DNA from: a virus
Taxonomy: Duplodnaviria > Caudoviricetes
Reading direction: 5' to 3' (one strand)
Virus record (IMG/VR): IMGVR_UViG_3300031993_000012
Coordinates: 1 to 64,000 of that record
DNA length: 64,000 bases
The position numbers and the translations under genes are program-made. Every line of letters starts with the position of its first letter. The first letter of the stretch is position 1. A model generated the notes under the pieces. That model saw nothing but the letters and a program-made list of their open reading frames with translations, was not told the DNA's origin and made no database searches. Shown here piece after piece: positions 12,002 through 40,161 of the stretch.

Positions 12002-14350
12002 ATGTTAAAACCAAAACAACTTAATCATGCTGATATTAAACGTCGTGATACGGTTCGCCGTGTTATGAACAAAAGCTCTGATATCAGAATGAAAATGGAG
12101 TCTGTCAACAAGTACAGTTTATGTGGTGTATCCGGTTTAGGTTTTCCGGGTAAAATATCACCGGTTCGTAGTTTGATGTTTTCCAAGCATGCTTCTCAAC
12201 GTGTCGTTCTAGACCACGGAGAATTTCCACGTATATTCACCGGTGCAGAAGATGCATACGGCAAACGTTCATCATTCTTTGTAACCGCAAAGAATAATCT
12301 CGTGTTAGAACGTAAATTCGTTAAATTTCCAAACACACCATATTCATCGGTACTGTATATTTTCCGAGATACAGTTACCAATAAATATGTTTGTCATTTA
12401 GCAGAAGCGGTTCATTGGAATGTTGAGAAATACGGATTCCAAAACATCGATATGATTAAAAACAATTACGATGTATCAGATACCATTCCGAAGGGTACGG
12501 TTATATCAAAAACCACATCATATGATGAAAACAATCATTACTGCGCAGGAGCAAATTTACGAATATTATATACAACATTACATGATCTAACCGAGGATGC
12601 AATTATATTATCCGAATCAGCATGTAAGAAGTTAGAATATTCAATGGTTGATAAAGTAACCGTTGATATCAGTGAGAAAATGTTCATGCTGAATAATTAC
12701 GGAACCTTAGAGAATTATAAAGCATTTCCAGATATTGGTGAAGAAATCCAGTCAGGTATTTTATGTTCATTAAGAGAAATCTCCGCGTTATCCAGTAAAT
12801 CCGAAGCAATGATTCCACATATCAATGATGTCAATTATTATACCAATGGAATCATTACTGATATTGATATCTATAGCAATTGTCCCGATCTTCAGGATAA
12901 ACAGCTTGCATATTATCATAATTGCGTAATGAATTGGTATACCGAAATATATTCGTATGTATCAACAATAATCAATCATGTTGATCAGGATGATACTAAA
13001 TTACTTGATATTTATCATAAAGCCAAGAAGTATCTGATGACACAAGCAAAATGGAGTACCAAAGAAAAGCTCCCGTATATTCAGGTCGTATTTAAAATAC
13101 TCCAGAAAAAGAAGATACGCAAAGGTCAGAAGATTACTGGTCGTTATGGAAACAAATCCGTTGTATCATTAATACTTCCAGATCGTTGTATGCCAAAGGA
13201 TGAATTCGGTAGACCAGTTGATATGTTGGCAAATGGATTTGCTCCTACCAATAGAATCATTGGATTTGCATTATATGAAGGAACGATTACATTTCAAATG
13301 GAATGTATTCATAATTATATACTTGATCCAAAGAATAATCTTTCGCGTGATGAAGCCGTTCAATTGGTAATTGATTACATGAGTTTATTCAATCACGATT
13401 GGGCAAATAGCATCAAACGTAAATATCAATATAATCCACAAGCAACATATGATGATATTCGCAAGAATGGATTATATATGTTAATGCCACCATTCCAACC
13501 AGAAAACGTTCGTGATGCAACAATCGAAGCATATGACAGATGGGAAGAAGTTGCTGAAGACGGAACCAATGCAGCATCCGCAAAATGGGAACGTTCAATC
13601 TTCCATAAGTACACAATCAAAACCAAACTCCGTCATCGTTGGATTGAACAGAAACGTGAACGTCATGCAATTGGTTATCAGTATACATGGGTTCTTAAAC
13701 AGGAAGCTTCTAAGAATATGACTGCAGTTGCAACTGGACGTACTACATTATACGATTTACCAATTAAAACATCCAACTATAAGAATCGTAAAATACAATA
13801 CTCTGACAATGCAATCAAGTTTGGTGAGTATGATACGTACGGATTCCTTCAGGTAGTTGATGTTGAAATGTTTGGTAAGATGACAACATATTATCGTGGT
13901 TCTCAGTATGAAGAGAATTCATTACTCATGTCACATCTGAATGATATTGGTATTCCCGAAGGTGCAGTTAATCAGTTCCCACAACTTGATTGTTTCAAAG
14001 CGTATCTGAAGGCAATTGGAATTAAATTGGAGAATGATTTCACTGTTAATTCAATTAATGCTGTTGATAAAGAAGAAACATTCGAGATTGGAAATCATTC
14101 TGTTAAGATATCTGGTTCATATCTCAGAACATTACTTGTCATATACTCATACTATATTCAATATAAGAATTGGTTGAAAGCAAATAACAATGGTTGTGAA
14201 GAAGCAACTGTTGATATGAATACATTTGTCGATAATATGTTGAATCGTACAGATTTATTCCATTTCAAGAATGAATCATATATACGTGAAGCATTCATGC
14301 ATTTCTTCGAAAAGTTCCGTATACTTGACGAAGAGAAGTTCTTAAAGTAA
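12002..14350 (+). CDS. rpoB: Multisubunit RNA polymerase beta subunit, C-terminal half (probably non-virion RNAP)
   Basis: EDAIILSES, GQKITGRYGNKSVVS, LKQ, KFGEYD correspond to beta motifs EDS/A, GDKxxxRHGNKG, LxH and RFGEME; AGGAGG RBS before ATG 12002. Confidence 0.92.
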   Translation: MLKPKQLNHADIKRRDTVRRVMNKSSDIRMKMESVNKYSLCGVSGLGFPGKISPVRSLMFSKHASQRVVLDHGEFPRIFTGAEDAYGKRSSFFVTAKNNLVLERKFVKFPNTPYSSVLYIFRDTVTNKYVCHLAEAVHWNVEKYGFQNIDMIKNNYDVSDTIPKGTVISKTTSYDENNHYCAGANLRILYTTLHDLTEDAIILSESACKKLEYSMVDKVTVDISEKMFMLNNYGTLENYKAFPDIGEEIQSGILCSLREISALSSKSEAMIPHINDVNYYTNGIITDIDIYSNCPDLQDKQLAYYHNCVMNWYTEIYSYVSTIINHVDQDDTKLLDIYHKAKKYLMTQAKWSTKEKLPYIQVVFKILQKKKIRKGQKITGRYGNKSVVSLILPDRCMPKDEFGRPVDMLANGFAPTNRIIGFALYEGTITFQMECIHNYILDPKNNLSRDEAVQLVIDYMSLFNHDWANSIKRKYQYNPQATYDDIRKNGLYMLMPPFQPENVRDATIEAYDRWEEVAEDGTNAASAKWERSIFHKYTIKTKLRHRWIEQKRERHAIGYQYTWVLKQEASKNMTAVATGRTTLYDLPIKTSNYKNRKIQYSDNAIKFGEYDTYGFLQVVDVEMFGKMTTYYRGSQYEENSLLMSHLNDIGIPEGAVNQFPQLDCFKAYLKAIGIKLENDFTVNSINAVDKEETFEIGNHSVKISGSYLRTLLVIYSYYIQYKNWLKANNNGCEEATVDMNTFVDNMLNRTDLFHFKNESYIREAFMHFFEKFRILDEEKFLK

Positions 14351-32855: not shown

Positions 32856-33094
32856 TGTACACCATTGAGGTATCATGGGGTGAGAAACGTGAATGCGTTT
32901 TTAATCCTATACAGGAAGAAACAATCTGGGGAGTGATTCTCAGATTGCAAACATTGTGGAATGCTAATACATCCACATTAAATTTCTCCACAAAGATAAT
33001 GGAGAATGATAAAATTATTTATGATGGACCTCTCAATCAGTTTGTGATTGATGGTTTCCGTTATGATGTCATTAAGGAGATGATGAAAAAATGA
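32852..33094 (+). CDS. Hypothetical protein
   Basis: 80 aa, AAGGAGGTG RBS. Confidence 0.7.
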   Translation: MMYTIEVSWGEKRECVFNPIQEETIWGVILRLQTLWNANTSTLNFSTKIMENDKIIYDGPLNQFVIDGFRYDVIKEMMKK

Positions 33095-35031
33095 ATAAGC
33101 TTGAAGTATTAACAATCGTAAAAGATTGGATACATGATTTGTCATATATTAATATGGAGACCGATGTTGAACATATTATGGATACTGATGGAGATACATT
33201 TAAAGTATATTATATTTCATCAGAATTCATAATTTCGATTACGTGGCTCGCACACAGTGAGTCTATCACCATTCTTATCAATCACCAATTTATCGCATCC
33301 ATTGAAAATAATGGTGAAATAGTTTATGATGAATCATACTACGAAGAAAAGCTTAAACCATTGGTTCAGTTTGATATTCGTTCTCTGATCAGCAGACTGA
33401 AACACCCACCGACGAAAGAATTCAAAGCATTCTGTAAAGGTGTTGAAGAATGGTTATCCCATTTGAATAATTCAACATTCAAATGGTATTGGTATTCTCC
33501 AACAGTGAATTCAATCGGTAAATGTTATAAAGTTAATGTTGGACCATTCGAGCGTTTATTCCATATCGAAAACTGTGATGGTGGAATTATACTGGATATC
33601 AATTATAATCAGACAATCAAATATATCGATGGTTTGGTAACAGTATTGCCTAAATCAGTAATTAAACCATTTACGTTTGAAGAAATATCACATTTACGTG
33701 ATACGATATTTTCCAGCATGCATAATGAGGAAAACAATCTCAAAATTATACGTATTGAGGAAATATTAAAACAGTGGTTATCGGATATGTCAATGACATA
33801 TACACGTAATGGTGAACATGCATATATTGCATGTATAACACAGCGTGGTTTACACCCATCTACGCACGCTCATATCGGCGTTAGTGTTCATGAGCAGAAT
33901 CCATGTATTTGGTTGTACAACACAACCAACCGCATTATTACATTCGATCCGGATAATAATTGGGAACCGGATATGTTAACTACATATTCTAATCATTATC
34001 CATTCTCTCATACTAATCTTACGAAACTCATGGCAATGTATGTTAAAGAATTTTGTGGTATTGATTATGAATTCCGCAATACAATATTTAATACAATTGA
34101 GCAGTTTTTAAAACGCAGATATCATGGGAGAATTGCGTTATCAAAAAACAATATCAAACATGTTAGATGGAATTTCCGTGGTAAAATCTTTGAATTCGTT
34201 TGGGTTCATGACAGATGGAGAGTATCTACTACCAATTTAGGTGTACACGTTCGAATCTCTGATATTTATCCATCTGGTGATATCAATATGGGTTCATGTA
34301 TAGGCTCAGAAGAAAAAGGTCTTATCAATGAAATCCGTGAAGCCATTAAACCAGTACCGGATTCCACGGATGAAGATTTACTGGAATCTATCAGTAAAGA
34401 ATACAGAACAATCACTGATGTACTGACTGATGATTTCAAGAAGAAAGTCAAGGAACGTAATACTGTAATTAATTCCAGTGATATTAATAATGTCATTAAC
34501 GTTATTAATGCTGGTGACATCCAGGAATTTCCTAGTAAAATTGAAGTTGCTGAGTCTATATTCCATCATAGACCTATAGATGAAATCAGAAAAGAGTTCA
34601 ATGATGCAGTTCATTCAATTAAACCGGAAACACTCTGGTTTGATTCAATGACTGATGTTATTGAAAATATTAAAAAGCAGGAGGAAAAAGAAATGCTTAT
34701 TGACGAAACATTGGCTGTTAAAATTGTTAAACAGCGGGGAGGTATGTATATACCGGAAATCAAACACGTACTCTTTAATGAGACAAAGCTTGTTACTACC
34801 GTAATATTTACGGATGGTGACAGAGTCACATCCAAATGCTGTGATGAAAATGTATTCGATCCCGAAATGGGATTCGCAATGTGCATCATGAAGAAGCTTT
34901 ATGGTAATCGCACACGTTTCCAGAAGGAAATCAAGAAATATCACAACGCAGGTATTCATCGGAATATCAAAATCGCAGAAAAAGCAGCGCGTAAAGAAAA
35001 AGAAAAAGAAGAAAACGACGCTGAAATATAA
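33091..35031 (+). CDS. Multidomain hypothetical protein
   Basis: 646 aa; C-terminal IKHVLFN...TTVIFTDG...KC...FDPEMGFAMCIMKK domain seen in many Firmicute phage proteins. Confidence 0.75.
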   Translation: MNKLEVLTIVKDWIHDLSYINMETDVEHIMDTDGDTFKVYYISSEFIISITWLAHSESITILINHQFIASIENNGEIVYDESYYEEKLKPLVQFDIRSLISRLKHPPTKEFKAFCKGVEEWLSHLNNSTFKWYWYSPTVNSIGKCYKVNVGPFERLFHIENCDGGIILDINYNQTIKYIDGLVTVLPKSVIKPFTFEEISHLRDTIFSSMHNEENNLKIIRIEEILKQWLSDMSMTYTRNGEHAYIACITQRGLHPSTHAHIGVSVHEQNPCIWLYNTTNRIITFDPDNNWEPDMLTTYSNHYPFSHTNLTKLMAMYVKEFCGIDYEFRNTIFNTIEQFLKRRYHGRIALSKNNIKHVRWNFRGKIFEFVWVHDRWRVSTTNLGVHVRISDIYPSGDINMGSCIGSEEKGLINEIREAIKPVPDSTDEDLLESISKEYRTITDVLTDDFKKKVKERNTVINSSDINNVINVINAGDIQEFPSKIEVAESIFHHRPIDEIRKEFNDAVHSIKPETLWFDSMTDVIENIKKQEEKEMLIDETLAVKIVKQRGGMYIPEIKHVLFNETKLVTTVIFTDGDRVTSKCCDENVFDPEMGFAMCIMKKLYGNRTRFQKEIKKYHNAGIHRNIKIAEKAARKEKEKEENDAEI

Positions 35032-35116
35032 AAAGGCAAAAGAAGTAACATATAATTACATCAATTAGAGATTGACGAACCTGTCAACTGAATGTTCAAT
35101 GTATAATTGATGACAT

Positions 35117-35199
35117 TACCGTTTGGCGACATACACAATCACTCATGTCGTTTCGATGAGTGTCAGACAGCAATCAATGTGTATGTTCGCCGACGGGTA
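35117..35199 (+). ncRNA. Structured RNA: long closing stem enclosing hairpin + ACAGCAAT
   Basis: TTGGCGA-CATACACA pairs with TGTGTATG-t-TCGCCGA; inner CACTCAT/ATGAGTG hairpin; ACAGCAATC at 35167. Confidence 0.55.
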
Positions 35200-35204
35200 T
35201 TTGT

Positions 35205-35285
35205 GGATGTGTGGCGGAATGGCAGACGCGCTGGTCTCAAGTACCAGTTCCGAAAGGAGTGAGGTTTCGAGTACCTCCACATCTA
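35205..35285 (+). tRNA. tRNA-Leu(CAA)
   Basis: Acceptor GGATGTG/CACATCT, anticodon arm CTGGT-CTCAAGT-ACCAG, long variable arm, T-loop TTCGAGT, A73. Confidence 0.9.
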
Positions 35286-35393
35286 TTACTGGGGTTACGT
35301 TTATATTACGGCTTCTGACTTTGCGGTTCATTGCGTAACTCCAGATCACCCCTAAAACCCGGGTAGCCTTTGCGTATCTACCCGGGCAAAAAA

Positions 35394-35507
35394 CGACGGA
35401 TAACTCAGTAGGTAGAGTACGTAAAGGAATCTAGATTTAGATTCGTACAGCAATCAGCTTGCATTCTAAGCACGGTGTCGTAGGTTCGAGTCCTACTCCG
35501 TCGACCA
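35394..35507 (+). tRNA. tRNA-Arg(TCT) interrupted by a 38-nt insertion (35423-35460) in the anticodon stem
   Basis: Perfect acceptor CGACGGA/TCCGTCG-A-CCA, D and T arms; removing the insert gives CGTGC-ATTCTAA-GCACG. Confidence 0.75.
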
Positions 35508-35508
35508 A

Positions 35509-35608
35509 TGGTCATGATGGGTAATTCCCCATCTTGTATTTAAGATGGTAACAGCAATCATCGGTGAATAAATGACGTTCGAATCGTAAATATTATTCAT
35601 CATGACCA
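35509..35608 (+). ncRNA. tRNA-like RNA with long terminal stem, hairpin + ACAGCAAT and a T-loop
   Basis: TGGTCATGATGGGTAAT pairs with ATTATTCATCATGACCA; CCATCTT/AAGATGG hairpin; ACG-TTCGAAT-CGT. Confidence 0.6.
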
Positions 35609-35614
35609 ATCTAT

Positions 35615-35722
35615 GCGGATATTAGCTCAATTGGATAGAGCGTACGGCCATAAGGAATCTAGATTTAGATTCGTACAGCAATAACACCATAAGGTTATCA
35701 GTTCGAATCTGATATATCCGCG
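35615..35722 (+). tRNA. tRNA-like gene whose anticodon loop is replaced by the hairpin+ACAGCA insert; anticodon unassignable
   Basis: 8-bp acceptor GCGGATAT/ATATCCGC, D arm GCTC-AATTGGATA-GAGC (A20, Arg-like), T arm ATCAG-TTCGAAT-CTGAT. Confidence 0.65.
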
Positions 35723-35731
35723 AATCAAACC

Positions 35732-35830
35732 CATTAGCCGCATAGTTTAGAATAGGTTAAAACGCTGAATATAATCTGAGCATACTAGGACTATTCGGAA
35801 AAGGTTGTTCGAATCGACCTGGGGTTAATG
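35732..35830 (+). tRNA. Degenerate tRNA-like element with 20-nt anticodon loop
   Basis: D arm GTTT-AGAATAGGTTA-AAAC, CTGAATA/TATTCGG stem, T-loop GTTCGAATC, terminal CATTAGCC/GGTTAATG pairing. Confidence 0.5.
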
Positions 35831-35843
35831 AGTTTAATCATAT

Positions 35844-35955
35844 GAAGGTGTTAGTTTAGTTGGTTAAAACGCGTTAAGGAATCTAGTGATAGATTCGTAC
35901 AGCATATTATTTGCATATGGCGCACGAGACACATGTTCAAATCATGTACACCTTC
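35844..35955 (+). tRNA. tRNA-His-like (ATG anticodon) interrupted by a 38-nt insertion (35875-35912)
   Basis: G-1:C73 pair, acceptor AAGGTGT/ACACCTT; removing the insert gives CGTGC-ATATGGC-GCACG. Confidence 0.7.
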
Positions 35956-35963
35956 TTCCAGAT

Positions 35964-36570
35964 GTGACATTAGCGCAGTCGGTAGCGCATTCGCTTTAAA
36001 GGAGAAATAATATGGAATTATCAACACATGCTAAAGGAGTTGTAACAGAATTAGCTGTACAACAAGCATTCATTAAACATGGATTCGGCGTATCAGTCCC
36101 AGTGTTACCCACTTCTAGATATGACATGATTGCTGATATTGATAGCAATTTATTCAAAGTCCAAATTAAAACAGCTAAGAAACTTCCAAATTCAGATGCC
36201 TTTATGATCAGAACGAAATCAACTAGAACACATCGATACGGTGTATCCGTTGTTAAATATACAGCGGATGAAATTGATATGTTTGCTACATGTTATAATG
36301 GTGATGTCTATGTTGTTCCACAATATTTAGCACAAGGAACTGAATTCATTTTTAGAAATTCATCAGCGAGTAACCAGAAAGTTGGTATTCATTTTGCATC
36401 TGATTTTAAGTTGGATAATGTTGTTGAAAAATGGAGAAATCAATCATTATCATTCAACAATAACCAACTTTATTTGAATAATAATGTATTATGATTATAT
36501 GATATTATTCAAATATAATAATTATCCTTTAAAGCGTGGGTCGTGGATTCGAGTTCCACATGTCACACCA
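35964..36570 (+). tRNA. tRNA split in the anticodon loop by an ORF-containing insertion of about 530 nt (halves 35964-36000 and 36528-36570)
   Basis: Acceptor GTGACAT/ATGTCAC-A-CCA, D arm GCGC-AGTCGGTA-GCGC, T arm GTGGA-TTCGAGT-TCCAC. Confidence 0.75.
36012..36494 (+). CDS. PD-(D/E)XK endonuclease, I-Ssp6803I-like homing endonuclease family
   Basis: KGVVTEL...G..VSVP...RYDMIAD....KVQIKT...Y...EIDMFA signature; AAAGGAG RBS inside the tRNA insertion. Confidence 0.88.
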   Translation: MELSTHAKGVVTELAVQQAFIKHGFGVSVPVLPTSRYDMIADIDSNLFKVQIKTAKKLPNSDAFMIRTKSTRTHRYGVSVVKYTADEIDMFATCYNGDVYVVPQYLAQGTEFIFRNSSASNQKVGIHFASDFKLDNVVEKWRNQSLSFNNNQLYLNNNVL

Positions 36571-36782
36571 TTGCGGTCTTCAGACAGCCGCAACAATTCC
36601 TAATCACGGCTGGCACTTATACATCCCTTCGTGTCAGCCACATATGTAACCAATGAGCTTGTCCATCTCAGAGGTTGCACCTCAATTGACAGCGATATCC
36701 ACGCCGCTGTTACATATCCTTTCATTTACGGCAGCTCCTTCGGGAGCTGCTGTAGTACCATTTATCTTTAGGAGGAATTTTT

Positions 36783-37523
36783 ATGTTACCCGAAATAATC
36801 AATTATGCTGATGAGAAAACTCACGAATTTCGTAAATCCATTGTCAGTGGTAAACCAAAAACAATATTGGTTATACATGATGATGACAGATCGAAATATC
36901 TTGGATTGTTTGCTATGTTAAGCGGCAATAAATGTGAGATAATAAACAATTCAACCGCAATGTATCATATATCCCACGACGTTATATTTGACGATGGTAT
37001 ATCAATTGATGATATTACATTCAATATATTTGATAAAGGTAATCTTTCTGAAACTCATGTCAGAATGGTAAAAATGCCAGATGATATATTAAATGAAACC
37101 ATCAGAGATATTGCATTAGGTAAAATAACCGAAGCTCCATTAGTAGTAAGCTTGTTGACGATGTATGAAAAATGTAATGGTACGGAATATATGACCAAAG
37201 TATACACAGATGTCAGATGCGATGATAAAACTGTCGATTTATATCATGATAATCATTATAATGTCACATCAAATTCAGAGAGAATCAAATCTACGGATCC
37301 TTATGATCAGATGGAAACAGCCATGATATTTAAAAACTATTTATCATATGGATTGACTGTGTGGTATATATTCCAAAAGGTCATTGGTGATGATGAATTA
37401 AAACAGTTCGTCACCAAATGCAAATGTAAACACAAATATTGTGGTAAAGAAATAACTGTTACTAAATATTCAATAGCATGTCAGAAATTGATACTTCATT
37501 TGGCTGAACGTATGAAAAAATAA
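36783..37523 (+). CDS. Hypothetical protein
   Basis: 246 aa, AGGAGG RBS. Confidence 0.75.
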   Translation: MLPEIINYADEKTHEFRKSIVSGKPKTILVIHDDDRSKYLGLFAMLSGNKCEIINNSTAMYHISHDVIFDDGISIDDITFNIFDKGNLSETHVRMVKMPDDILNETIRDIALGKITEAPLVVSLLTMYEKCNGTEYMTKVYTDVRCDDKTVDLYHDNHYNVTSNSERIKSTDPYDQMETAMIFKNYLSYGLTVWYIFQKVIGDDELKQFVTKCKCKHKYCGKEITVTKYSIACQKLILHLAERMKK

Positions 37524-37602
37524 TATGATATCCCCAGATAATTCTGGGGATATATTTTTTGTGTAATATGAACATTAGAGTATAAAAACATTACATGAAT
37601 GA

Positions 37603-37677
37603 TTCCGTATCGCCAAGGGGTTAAGGCAGATGTCTTTGAAGCATCTATCGCTCGTTCGATCCGAGCTACGGAAACCA
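37603..37677 (+). tRNA. tRNA-Gln(TTG)
   Basis: Acceptor TTCCGTA/TACGGAA-A-CCA, anticodon arm GATGT-CTTTGAA-GCATC, T-loop TTCGATC. Confidence 0.9.
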
Positions 37678-37919
37678 AAGGAAGTTTACTTCCAAACAGA
37701 TGTGAGGTTCACGTTTTCACATTTGTCTCCTTAACTTTTAGCCATGTGGATACTAGTTGCCACCTTCTCTGGTATCCACGCGCTTCTTTTGTTCTATATC
37801 CTACTTCTAATTTTAGCCCGGGTTATTCCCGGGCATCTATTTTTTTCAAATTCCATATTTATATTATTTAATTGGATTCTATGAACGTAGAATCAAAAAT
37901 ATATCGGAGGTATAAAAAT

Positions 37920-37994
37920 ATGTTTGCAAAATTAATCGAATTCATTAGAGGTATCGTATCATTCCTGAGCGGAATGTTATTTGCCATCAGATAA
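37920..37994 (+). CDS. 24-aa amphipathic/hydrophobic peptide MFAKLIEFIRGIVSFLSGMLFAIR
   Basis: GGAGGT RBS, first ORF after the promoter motif at about 37850; stop overlaps the next RBS. Confidence 0.5.
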   Translation: MFAKLIEFIRGIVSFLSGMLFAIR

Positions 37995-38007
37995 GGAGGA
38001 ACATAAA

Positions 38008-38748
38008 ATGGAAATATTATTAGATAACAAAAGTATCGCTGAAAAGATTGCATATGTAGATGCAGTGGAGCGCGTTGCATTGTGTAGTAATCAGTATGTA
38101 TATACTGCATTTCATAATGTAATTGTCACCGATAATGTTGAATTTGATGTAGATTTCTACATAGGAGATCCACGAGAGGTAGATTGGGATTATACTCAGC
38201 TCGATGAAGAAACCGTTAGATTTAAATTCGACGAATCTGACATTAAACTTCTTAAGGAATGCCATAATAGTAAAGAGCTTAATCAGGTGGTTCACAAAAT
38301 TCTTATATCGTGTATCGAGAAGCTTAACAAAGAACTGAGTGATCTAATCGGTGCTGGATATGTTGATTTTCAAACAATGATCTACTATAATAACTATACG
38401 AATGTAATCAGAAGCTGGAAGAATCTTAGAATTGATTCAGGGTGGCAAATCAAAAAACCTAACAATTATGGTGCAACAGATAGCGTTAAACAGGGTGACT
38501 CTGATTGGGGTGTACTCCAATTTATATGGGGAACTGCTGTTTATAAATTTGGAGATTATGGTACATCTCCTAGAGTCGGATGGATAGATATCAAAGAACA
38601 TCCAGAATTCTATGAATGGATAGATGCTGTATGTTTCGATGACATCAGTAATAACATATCCGTGAAGACAAAAGAATTGACTAATGAATTCAGAAAGGTG
38701 GTGAAGAATATTGGGGCCGTCAGTCCTGAAGACAATCGTGCAACTTGA
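38008..38748 (+). CDS. Hypothetical protein, start MEILLD
   Basis: AAGGAGG RBS. Confidence 0.75.
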   Translation: MEILLDNKSIAEKIAYVDAVERVALCSNQYVYTAFHNVIVTDNVEFDVDFYIGDPREVDWDYTQLDEETVRFKFDESDIKLLKECHNSKELNQVVHKILISCIEKLNKELSDLIGAGYVDFQTMIYYNNYTNVIRSWKNLRIDSGWQIKKPNNYGATDSVKQGDSDWGVLQFIWGTAVYKFGDYGTSPRVGWIDIKEHPEFYEWIDAVCFDDISNNISVKTKELTNEFRKVVKNIGAVSPEDNRAT

Positions 38749-38844
38749 TGTTCGATCAACTATTGATATGATTGTTGTCGCATTTTGTATGCTGATGATT
38801 ATCCGGTATGGTCAATATCGGAAGAAGAAAAGGAGTAAAAAGTA

Positions 38845-39306
38845 ATGGAAGACAAAATATATATTCATTATGGATCAGATCATTTTGACCCAGAATTATT
38901 TAAAGAAGCGGAATATGAATCTGAGTTCGATTTTAAACCCTATAAAGGTGGATTATGGGCATCAGAGGACACGGATGATGAGTCATATCATTCTTGGCGA
39001 GAATGGTGTGAAATAGAATGTTTTGAACTTTATAGGTTAGAAACATCTTTCCGTTTCAAACTTGCGGAACATCAGAAACCATTCGTAGTTAAAGATGATT
39101 CTATTATTGAAACTAAATATTGTGGTTATTGCAACCCATACAATATTCATCGATTTTCTCGGTTACATCTGAATTTAGATGAACTCAAACGTGATGGATA
39201 TACTCATATTGAGTTTCATAAAAATTCATGGACACACTGGGCTTTCTATAGCTGGGATTGCGATTGTATATTAATATTGGACCCAACGGTAATAGTCCCA
39301 GTGTGA
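38845..39306 (+). CDS. Conserved-type phage hypothetical protein (possible ART-like fold)
   Basis: IHYGS...KP.KGGLWAS...W.EWC...WDCDCIL pattern; fold assignment speculative. Confidence 0.65.
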   Translation: MEDKIYIHYGSDHFDPELFKEAEYESEFDFKPYKGGLWASEDTDDESYHSWREWCEIECFELYRLETSFRFKLAEHQKPFVVKDDSIIETKYCGYCNPYNIHRFSRLHLNLDELKRDGYTHIEFHKNSWTHWAFYSWDCDCILILDPTVIVPV

Positions 39307-39322
39307 ATCGAGGTGATGAAGA

Positions 39323-39589
39323 ATGATTATAAATGACATGACAGTCATACCAAAGAAAGATAAAGAAACCGAGTATGACGTTGTTAAGGGACACAAACGG
39401 ACGATAACAATTAAACGACACAACATCGGATTACAATTCGAAGCGGAATTGACATTTGATGAATATTATTGGGTATTCGGTGATCGAAGACCTGAGAAAT
39501 TCAATCTGGCATTCGAATCCGCATTGTATGAATTTATCCGAGAAGAGTTCAAGGAGGACGAAGATGAACAAGTTAAAAATCACGGGTAG
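39323..39589 (+). CDS. Hypothetical protein
   Basis: 88 aa, GAGGTGA RBS. Confidence 0.7.
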   Translation: MIINDMTVIPKKDKETEYDVVKGHKRTITIKRHNIGLQFEAELTFDEYYWVFGDRRPEKFNLAFESALYEFIREEFKEDEDEQVKNHG

Positions 39590-39860
39590 TACACCCCTGA
39601 ATTGCACCGGTCTCGTAACAGGAGACTATTACATCATTGATGATGGACATAAAAAGATCGGTCAATTAATATCGGCTACGATTTTGAATATTATATTCAG
39701 AATATATGTTTCGGATAACGTAGTCGTATATGATGAACTGAGAATCCCAACAATTGATTTGATTGACAGTTCTACGATAATCACACACATCGGTGATAAT
39801 TTACCGGTGAATGAGTTGGCTGAAATCCTTTGTGATATACCGAAGGATGAAATGATGTAA
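39564..39860 (+). CDS. Hypothetical protein, start MNKLKI
   Basis: AAGGAGG RBS before ATG 39564. Confidence 0.65.
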   Translation: MNKLKITGSTPLNCTGLVTGDYYIIDDGHKKIGQLISATILNIIFRIYVSDNVVVYDELRIPTIDLIDSSTIITHIGDNLPVNELAEILCDIPKDEMM

Positions 39861-39861
39861 C

Positions 39862-40161
39862 ATGAAACTGTACAATGATTCATCAAACAACAAACAAATC
39901 GCAATCAAAGATATCATATACATGATAACGCAATTGGATAAATTTATCCAATTATATGACAAATGTATATACGAAACTGACGATGAACAACGTCGTGCAA
40001 TTACTAAACTGGAAGACATTGTTCATCTGTTCAAAAAACGCGACTTCGAATATTTGTTCGAAGATAAAATCAATCTGATTGATTGGGATACAACAACATC
40101 AAAATTCACTCCAGATGAAATAAAAGCATGGAGAGAATTCTTCAAAAAGAATCCGTATTGA
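39862..40161 (+). CDS. Hypothetical protein
   Basis: 99 aa in a tightly packed operon. Confidence 0.7.
   Translation: MKLYNDSSNNKQIAIKDIIYMITQLDKFIQLYDKCIYETDDEQRRAITKLEDIVHLFKKRDFEYLFEDKINLIDWDTTTSKFTPDEIKAWREFFKKNPY

Follow-up and report, generated by a model that had tools for sequence, protein, structure and literature searches.

The tRNA-Lys(UUU) gene at positions 35964-36570 (plus strand) of a 64,000-nt stretch of tailed-phage DNA (Duplodnaviria; Caudoviricetes) is interrupted in its anticodon loop by a 530-bp insert that carries a nuclease gene of the I-Ssp6803I family. This stretch, referred to below as the window, represents the first 64 kb of the 182-kb IMG/VR record IMGVR_UViG_3300031993_000012 (CheckV completeness, about 68%). 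Our analysis suggests that the insert is probably an intron-less homing cassette that has fractured a dispensable tRNA gene, and that the tRNA is not restored, splicing being presumably absent. The comparison loci of this analysis are labelled L017, L042, L053-L056, L060, L062-L063, L065-L071, and L073-L074.

When introns were allowed, ARAGORN called 35964-36570 as one tRNA-Lys(ttt) gene with a 530-nt intron after gene nucleotide 34, which places the insertion point between canonical tRNA positions 33 and 34. The 5' half (35964-35997) comprises the 5' strand of the acceptor stem, the D arm, the 5' strand of the anticodon stem, and U32-U33. The insert occupies 35998-36527, and the 3' half (36528-36570) comprises the UUU anticodon, A37-A38, the 3' strand of the anticodon stem, a 5-nt variable loop, the T arm, the 3' strand of the acceptor stem, and an encoded ACCA end. 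A minimum free energy (MFE) fold of all 607 nt paired the two halves with each other through 7/7 acceptor base pairs and formed a 4-bp D stem and a 5-bp T stem. The ARAGORN call and the fold bear out the claim of an earlier note on this DNA that intact tRNA halves surround the insertion.

An uninterrupted allele, which the earlier note had named as something to look for in related phages, is present in the viral contig L042. We reached this contig through a neighbouring 38-nt module, a 15-mer of which matched 45 loci, L017 and L042 alone being real. At the syntenic position, L042:3851-3923 is an intact tRNA-Lys(UUU) gene with the loop CTTTTAA and no insert, and the gene order of L042 is that of the window: tRNA-Leu(CAA), tRNA-Arg(UCU) with the same 38-nt insert, the tRNA in question, a conserved structured RNA, an open reading frame (ORF), and tRNA-Gln. 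The D arm of the window 5' half is the same as that of the L042 tRNA-Lys letter for letter, and the window 3' half is identical to it from the anticodon through the first base of the T stem; because of these two matches, the split gene is identified by homology as tRNA-Lys(UUU). A D-arm pattern search of IMG/VR returned only L042 and one chance match in a coding region. The anticodon UUA (ochre-reading) or UAA and the Pro-like body proposed in the earlier note give way to this assignment. The misreading arose because the stem was placed one base out of register, and an ochre-suppressor or Leu anticodon is excluded by the L042 homology together with the ARAGORN call.

The anticodon stem of the window gene is imperfect, with an extra nucleotide after position 26 and a U-U opposition at 27-43. 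Its 5' strand differs from that of L042 and is closer to the TTCGN-type stems of other Lys tRNAs in the group. We read this stem as a probable hybrid, its 5' strand belonging to the recipient and its 3' strand having come from the donor through co-conversion. Such a stem fits co-conversion of the 3' strand alone, and fits halves that are not kept as a tRNA.

The ORF in the insert (36012-36494, plus strand) encodes a 160-aa protein of the PD-(D/E)XK type. Its product matched PF11645 (PDDEXK_5) over residues 4-134 with a score of 71.1 bits (cut-off, 26.1 bits; E 1.2e-19), and it is the only PF11645 gene in the 182-kb record. A family profile built from 18 sequences (the ORF product and 17 homologues) matched PDB 2OST (E 2e-13), which we take to be the structure of I-Ssp6803I; these matches uphold the original proposal of an I-Ssp6803I-family nuclease gene in a tRNA anticodon loop. 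Residues Y37-D38 and Q51-x-K53 are invariant across the family and align with YD and QVK of 2OST, presumably the catalytic residues. The dN/dS ratios against distant copies were 0.10-0.20, with dS up to saturation, which indicates that the protein has been maintained in working order across the family. The comparison with the 94%-identical copy in L053 gave 0.52, a figure with few changes behind it.

The non-coding part of the insert amounts to 47 nt. A 14-nt leader (35998-36011) holds the ribosome binding site (RBS) AAAGGAG 7 nt ahead of the ATG and is paired in the helix that closes the insert, and a 33-nt tail follows the ORF. The earlier note had counted about 17 and 30 nt on the two sides; these lengths are corrected here, and its conclusion that they leave no room for a group I core stands. 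A hairpin with 22-nt arms (82% complementary) spans the stop codon (36471-36515); it was found by the repeat search and in the MFE fold and is conserved in L053. The closing helix corresponds to an exact 12-bp inverted repeat (35992-36003 with 36525-36536), which extends to 19/22 over 22-nt arms (86% complementary) and forms a continuous 12-bp helix in the MFE fold, RBS included. Four of the 12 bp are the anticodon stem and two are the loop complementarity of U32-U33 with A37-A38; in the other six, the first bases of the insert pair with the anticodon and with the final 3 nt of the insert. Each junction carries the palindromic octamer CTTTAAAG, which is thus a direct and an inverted repeat at once. 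Most of the 12-bp repeat is the near-palindromic anticodon arm of the tRNA itself, which the insertion has separated into two parts, and the repeat is no independent design feature. The 3' arm and tail are 97% kept in L053 despite a different 5' side, so the 3' arm was not shaped to fit the 5' arm of the window. Thus the repeat first noted is exact and does pair over the RBS, and it is not the separate feature it was taken for, since its outer 6 bp belong to the tRNA. Transposon terminal repeats were rejected as an explanation of the repeat in the window.

Evidence of recent movement came from L053-L055, which are one phage in three samples, identical over 942 nt. Its nuclease is 94% identical in protein to that of the window. 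Nucleotide alignment of L053 with the window revealed a mosaic. Identity was 30% in the 5' half and upstream and 64% in the 14-nt leader, 96.3% in the ORF, 97% in the 33-nt tail, and 94% in the first 16 nt of the 3' half, and it was 48% in the T arm and acceptor and 54% in the downstream region. The highly similar block (36012-36543, plus strand) was therefore transferred laterally in the recent past together with the adjoining exon sequence. Co-conversion of the adjoining exon accompanies homing (PMC3984707), and the mosaic points to recent homing with co-conversion as the probable origin of the insert in the window tRNA. The suggestion in the earlier note that the element is mobile is supported by this sharp boundary and by the insertion-free allele in L042. 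The insert has the attributes of a free-standing homing cassette, namely its own RBS, no ribozyme, an insert-free allele, a sharp identity boundary, and a co-converted flank. The 5' junction in the window may reflect direct insertion, or a cassette like that of L053 or L062 may have lost its spare tRNA there.

Relatives of the nuclease were found at 12 distinct loci, L053-L055 and L066/L067 each being counted as one locus. When the protein and the family alignment were back-translated and searched against IMG/VR, no relatives emerged, and a metagenome scan for relatives yielded 3 loci only. In 10/12 loci, a complete tRNA gene (Lys, Met, or Asn) of the same identity as the broken one lies directly upstream of the nuclease gene. 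Seven of these 10 retain resident stubs on both sides, so that the resident halves surround a unit of complete tRNA and nuclease gene (L062, L069, L063, L066/L067, L056, and L065 with a spare tRNA-Lys; L070 with a spare tRNA-Met). The other three (L060, L071, and the cultured halovirus HSTV-4 with tRNA-Asn) consist of a complete tRNA, the nuclease gene, and a 3' stub, with no 5' half. The direct split of the window recurs in L068, where a 43%-identical nuclease interrupts a Met/Ile-type tRNA and its stop codon abuts the anticodon stem. A fourth arrangement is found in L053-L055, in which a join within the loop links the 5' half of the resident tRNA-Lys to a 3' half derived from a cassette tRNA, and the nuclease gene and the resident 3' half come next; the acceptor stem of the fused 'tRNA' is non-pairing. 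The presence of a spare tRNA beside the stubs in most relatives argues against removal of the insert by splicing, which would make the spare needless. In the archaeal virus (Halorubrum sodomense tailed virus 4, MZ334501.1; L074:1090-1700), the nuclease-family gene starts 2 nt after a complete tRNA-Asn(GTT), and a duplicate T arm and acceptor stub of tRNA-Asn follows the nuclease gene.

The cassettes show how closely the resident gene is replaced and to what extent its remains have decayed. The stubs of L069 equal the L042 tRNA-Lys bar one T-loop base, and the cassette replaces positions 27-43 exactly; the spare tRNA-Lys has the anticodon stem ATCGC/GCGAT, versus ACGCT/AGCGT in the resident. 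L066 and L067 have an identical nuclease, and their 5' halves fit the swapped 3' halves (7/7 in one case and 6 plus one G-U in the other) better than those in cis (one mismatch each). This swap indicates recombination inside the cassette. The swapped resident halves are located at L066:1340-1366 and 2000-2040 and at L067:240-270 and 900-935. The anticodon stem is gone in L056; the 3' half of L068 lacks a usable anticodon, and CAU cannot be regenerated; L062 and L070 have D-stem mismatches. Decay of the halves in relatives, which the earlier note would have held against splicing, was thus seen in part: the mismatches of L066/L067, the stem loss of L056, and the loss of the 5' half in three loci are on one side, and T arms that are still paired are on the other.

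A tblastn search of GenBank phages found only distant relatives of the nuclease. One of them lies in the Enterococcus phage EFP01 (Herelleviridae), in which tRNA-Asn is split at 36/37 by a scar-free 463-bp insert containing a distant PDDEXK_5 relative (L073:1132-1667; KY549443.1, about 105242-105777), as determined by comparison with the uninterrupted tRNA-Asn of phage iF6. The EFP01 record lists this ORF as a hypothetical protein and has no tRNA annotation over the surrounding 18 kb. The insert is absent from 33/33 other matching Enterococcus phage records (31 distinct phages). In 29 of these records the match joins the two pieces over 150-158 bp, mostly annotated as tRNA-Asn, and in the remaining four it covers only about 40 bp, inside tRNA-Asn. 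Since the insert is confined to EFP01 among the matching records, we consider it a sporadic and recent insertion, and one that a viable cultured phage carries.

These results are consistent with the following course of events. A gene of the I-Ssp6803I family would have entered the anticodon loop of tRNA-Lys(UUU) at 33/34 by homing, as a copy made during double-strand-break repair. The nucleases of this family probably cut anticodon-arm DNA; the insertion splits this near-palindromic DNA, and a carrier would thus be immune to its own enzyme. The nuclease gene would share the transcript of the tRNA cluster and use its own RBS for translation; the closing helix may mask this RBS in the full-length precursor. 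The tRNA-Lys presumably stays broken and non-functional, and its halves may have survived both through the recency of the insertion and through use as homology arms in later rounds of homing. The nuclease of most relatives would bring a complete, sequence-divergent spare tRNA that compensates for the broken one, and the copies in the window and in L053-L055 may have lost the spare tRNA or never had one.

Several observations weigh against a tRNA that stays broken. The window halves are still well formed, with 7/7 acceptor pairs, intact D and T arms, and an encoded CCA, and excision of exactly 530 nt would yield a canonical 7-nt loop with U33 and the anticodon UUU. The split gene is the sole tRNA-Lys found in the 182-kb record, which is about 68% complete. 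The 38-nt inserts of neighbouring tRNAs cannot be group I introns either, and relatives conserve them between foldable exons; the lineage may possibly have some means of removing anticodon-arm inserts, and host enzymes may supply the splicing functions. The cassettes of L062/L069, L063, and L066/L067 are closed by 14-24 exact bp of unrelated sequence, and one C-G to T-A pair change between the L066 and L067 helices is compensatory. The T arms of the relatives are all still paired (one G-U in L067) and most of their acceptor stems are perfect. This last point is mixed evidence, as it suggests function, or at least recency. The same pattern would result if homing entered new targets again and again, the sequence outside the co-conversion tract then coming from the recipient.

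The closing helices of the relatives are located at L062:1218-1236 with 1810-1827, L063:1368-1383 with 1968-1983, and L066:1367-1390 with 1976-1999, and likewise in L067. They continue the resident anticodon stem and overlap the nuclease stop codon. They look like the outcome of selection on RNA structure, which could act through processing, mRNA stability, or translational control of the nuclease; their unrelated sequences fit RNA pairing better than a protein-binding site. On this basis, it is conceivable, if unlikely, that the tRNA is not restored and that its shell nevertheless serves the element: RNase P and 3' processing would trim the ends, the paired halves would cap the nuclease mRNA and stabilise it, or the helix would mask the RBS and so hold nuclease levels down until it is opened or cut. 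The position of the window RBS inside the closing helix, the helices of L062/L069, L063, and L066/L067 with their compensatory change, and the 3' CCA encoded in most shells all agree with such a role, and, for the free-standing endonuclease genes of 'fractured genes', hairpins that mask the RBS have been reported on the upstream side (PMC2677866). No extended helix is present in L056, L065, L068, or L070, however, and half of the window helix comes free from the tRNA's own palindrome.

Restoration of the tRNA by proteins is a distinctly improbable alternative, in which a host or phage endoribonuclease would cut both junctions and an RNA ligase, for example host RtcB, would rejoin tRNA-Lys. Such a process would mirror, in a bacterial virus, the enzymatic tRNA splicing of archaea and eukaryotes. 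The clean loop left by removal of 530 nt, the intact halves held by a 12-bp helix, the precise, scar-free insertion of the same class in EFP01, and the conserved 38-nt inserts of neighbouring tRNAs are what this alternative would predict. The 33/34 junction also coincides with the site at which the anticodon nuclease PrrC cleaves tRNA-Lys. 'Enigmatic' tRNA introns have moreover been reported in Lak megaphages (PMC6784885). The geometry, however, is unfavourable. In the MFE fold both junctions lie inside the uninterrupted 12-bp helix, with no bulge-helix-bulge motif. Such a motif would place a pair of 3-nt bulges, with 4 bp of helix between them, where exon meets intron. Judging from the fold, the cuts needed here would produce a 5' overhang of 3 nt, a stagger opposite to that of bulge-helix-bulge cleavage and of RNase III. 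Excision by RNase III followed by ligation was rejected, since no 7-nt loop can result here from its 2-nt 3' overhang and a search for a phage RNase III was negative. The 182-kb record, at about 68% completeness, yielded no EndA (PF01974), RtcB (PF01139), Rnl2 (PF09414), or Rnl1 (PF09511; its control matched no control genome), and no RNase III (PF14622), PNK-type kinase AAA_33 (PF13671), or LigT (PF02834). The imperfect anticodon stem of the window and the spare tRNAs and mismatched or truncated halves of the relatives also speak against restoration. For the lack of a bulge-helix-bulge and of splicing genes in the record, and in view of the spare tRNAs, the archaeal-style, protein-spliced intron favoured by the earlier note is not sustained.

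An Rfam scan of 33000-40000 (E<=1) found no group I intron or other ribozyme and returned only tRNAs and one chance snoRNA-like match. A scan of 11 related loci (E<=0.1) likewise found no intron family or ribozyme; the matches were tRNAs, weak tmRNA or plastid-UTR look-alikes on tRNAs or tRNA stubs, and one weak snoRNA-like match. With 47 nt of non-coding sequence, any group I core would have to fall inside the ORF, whose substitution pattern is protein-like with no sign of an overlapping conserved RNA. The insert therefore contains neither a group I core recognisable by Rfam nor the room for one, as was originally claimed. Some group I introns have ORFs that extend into ribozyme elements, and every relative has a conserved RNA of five hairpins after the tRNA. 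A self-splicing RNA of a cryptic or novel kind, overlapping the ORF or placed immediately beyond the insert (in the conserved RNA at 36571-36770, for instance), is nonetheless highly improbable given the negative scans, the protein-like evolution of the ORF (dN/dS 0.1-0.2), the occurrence of the downstream RNA beside the uninterrupted tRNA-Lys of L042 as well, and the L068 stop codon, which abuts the anticodon stem and leaves no 3' non-coding sequence.

A fractured tRNA-Lys, our preferred reading, has partial parallels among known systems. According to Bonocora and Shub (2001), as cited in PMC3984707, I-Ssp6803I sits in a group I intron of the tRNA-fMet gene of Synechocystis PCC 6803. The window element shares with it the PF11645 family, a home in a tRNA anticodon loop, and presumably an anticodon-arm DNA target. 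Unlike the Synechocystis case, in which a ribozyme restores the tRNA, no ribozyme is present here, and the genes that harbour the element encode phage tRNA-Lys, Met, and Asn. T4 SegB is a free-standing GIY-YIG homing endonuclease encoded in the T4 tRNA cluster (PMC2330249), and the term 'intronless homing' (PMC3984707) is available for such movement. The likeness to SegB lies in a homing endonuclease that is encoded among phage tRNA genes, recognises tRNA-gene sequence, and co-converts neighbouring tRNA genes. The nuclease family differs, however, and no broken resident tRNA with a spare copy is described for SegB; segB itself presumably sits between genes and interrupts no tRNA.

In 'fractured genes', a free-standing endonuclease gene breaks a gene in two (Dassa et al. 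2009, PMC2677866). Both pieces keep their original order there, as they do here. Those genes, however, encode proteins that are mended post-translationally by split inteins, whereas no equivalent repair of an RNA gene was seen here, and we know of none. The insert resembles the bulge-helix-bulge introns of archaea and eukaryotes in being a ribozyme-less anticodon-arm insert with exon ends held by a helix; it differs in that no motif, EndA, or RtcB was found here and in the opposite stagger of the implied cuts. The 'enigmatic' tRNA introns of Lak megaphages have no established mechanism (Devoto et al. 2019, PMC6784885). They too are non-group-I inserts in large gut phages with insert-free alleles in relatives, although nuclease coding has not been reported for them. 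Our full-text literature search found no description of ribozyme-less nuclease genes in tRNA anticodon loops, nor of spare-tRNA cassettes.

The tRNA cluster around the split gene extends over about 35100-37700 on the plus strand. Standard tRNA tools call only three genes across this region: tRNA-Leu(CAA) (35204-35286), a tRNA with a gap in the anticodon arm (35394-35504), and tRNA-Gln(UUG) (37603-37677), all on the plus strand. The 38-nt insert of the neighbouring tRNAs consists of a 7-bp hairpin followed by ACAGCA and is located after position 29 in the anticodon stem. It occurs in tRNAs at 35394-35504 and 35843-35958 of the window (also 35614-35722), L042:2505-2625, L017 at about 13908-14020, L062:416-529, and L069:283-396. 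Excision of the insert would produce perfect CGTGC/GCACG stems and 7-nt loops (UCU, Arg; AUG, His-like), and a second small hairpin (GCAA/TTGC) spans its 3' junction. The same stem sequence in different tRNAs with this insert suggests co-conversion or a sequence requirement. The insert is too small for a group I intron and has no Rfam match. The same module, a hairpin plus ACAGCAAT but with other stem sequences, is also found in two long-stem non-tRNA RNAs of the window (35129-35186 and 35509-35609), one of which has a T-loop-like arm and an ACCA end. A regular-expression scan of the 182-kb record recovered all five cluster copies of the module and four further matches that look like chance.

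Directly downstream of tRNA-Lys, all relatives share a conserved, five-hairpin RNA about 190 nt long (window 36571-36770; L042:3925-4112; L053:1467-1660; L062:1859-2045; L069:1719-1868). It has invariant single-stranded motifs (e.g. GGTCTTCAGACA at a hairpin top) and 12 pairs with compensatory changes. No Rfam match was obtained for it, and it is present beside split and unsplit tRNA alike. Another tRNA-like gene with a different hairpin insert (8-9-bp stem) in the anticodon region was observed at L062:1060-1170 and L069:930-1040. Judging from these sequences, interrupted tRNAs seem to be common in this phage group.

The window element is best described as a minimal form of an I-Ssp6803I-family, intron-less homing cassette that targets the anticodon arms of phage tRNAs. 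For annotation, tRNA halves around small ORFs should be recognised as one gene. The cultured phage EFP01, with the same class of insert, makes the question of splicing directly testable. Should the improbable protein splicing prove real, it would count as the first example of enzymatic tRNA splicing in a virus of bacteria; it would also define a class of mobile, ribozyme-less, enzymatically spliced introns in phage tRNA genes and offer a living model for the origin of protein-spliced tRNA introns from endonuclease-bearing mobile elements. Homing endonuclease genes are thought to survive in essential genes only if sheltered by a self-splicing intron or intein, and the I-Ssp6803I family is, to our knowledge, the one homing-nuclease family known from tRNA group I introns. 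The relatives described here show another route to tolerance, in which a spare, divergent tRNA is supplied and the resident one is discarded. This route would explain part of the rapid turnover of phage tRNA clusters and of the 'pseudo-tRNA' litter within them.

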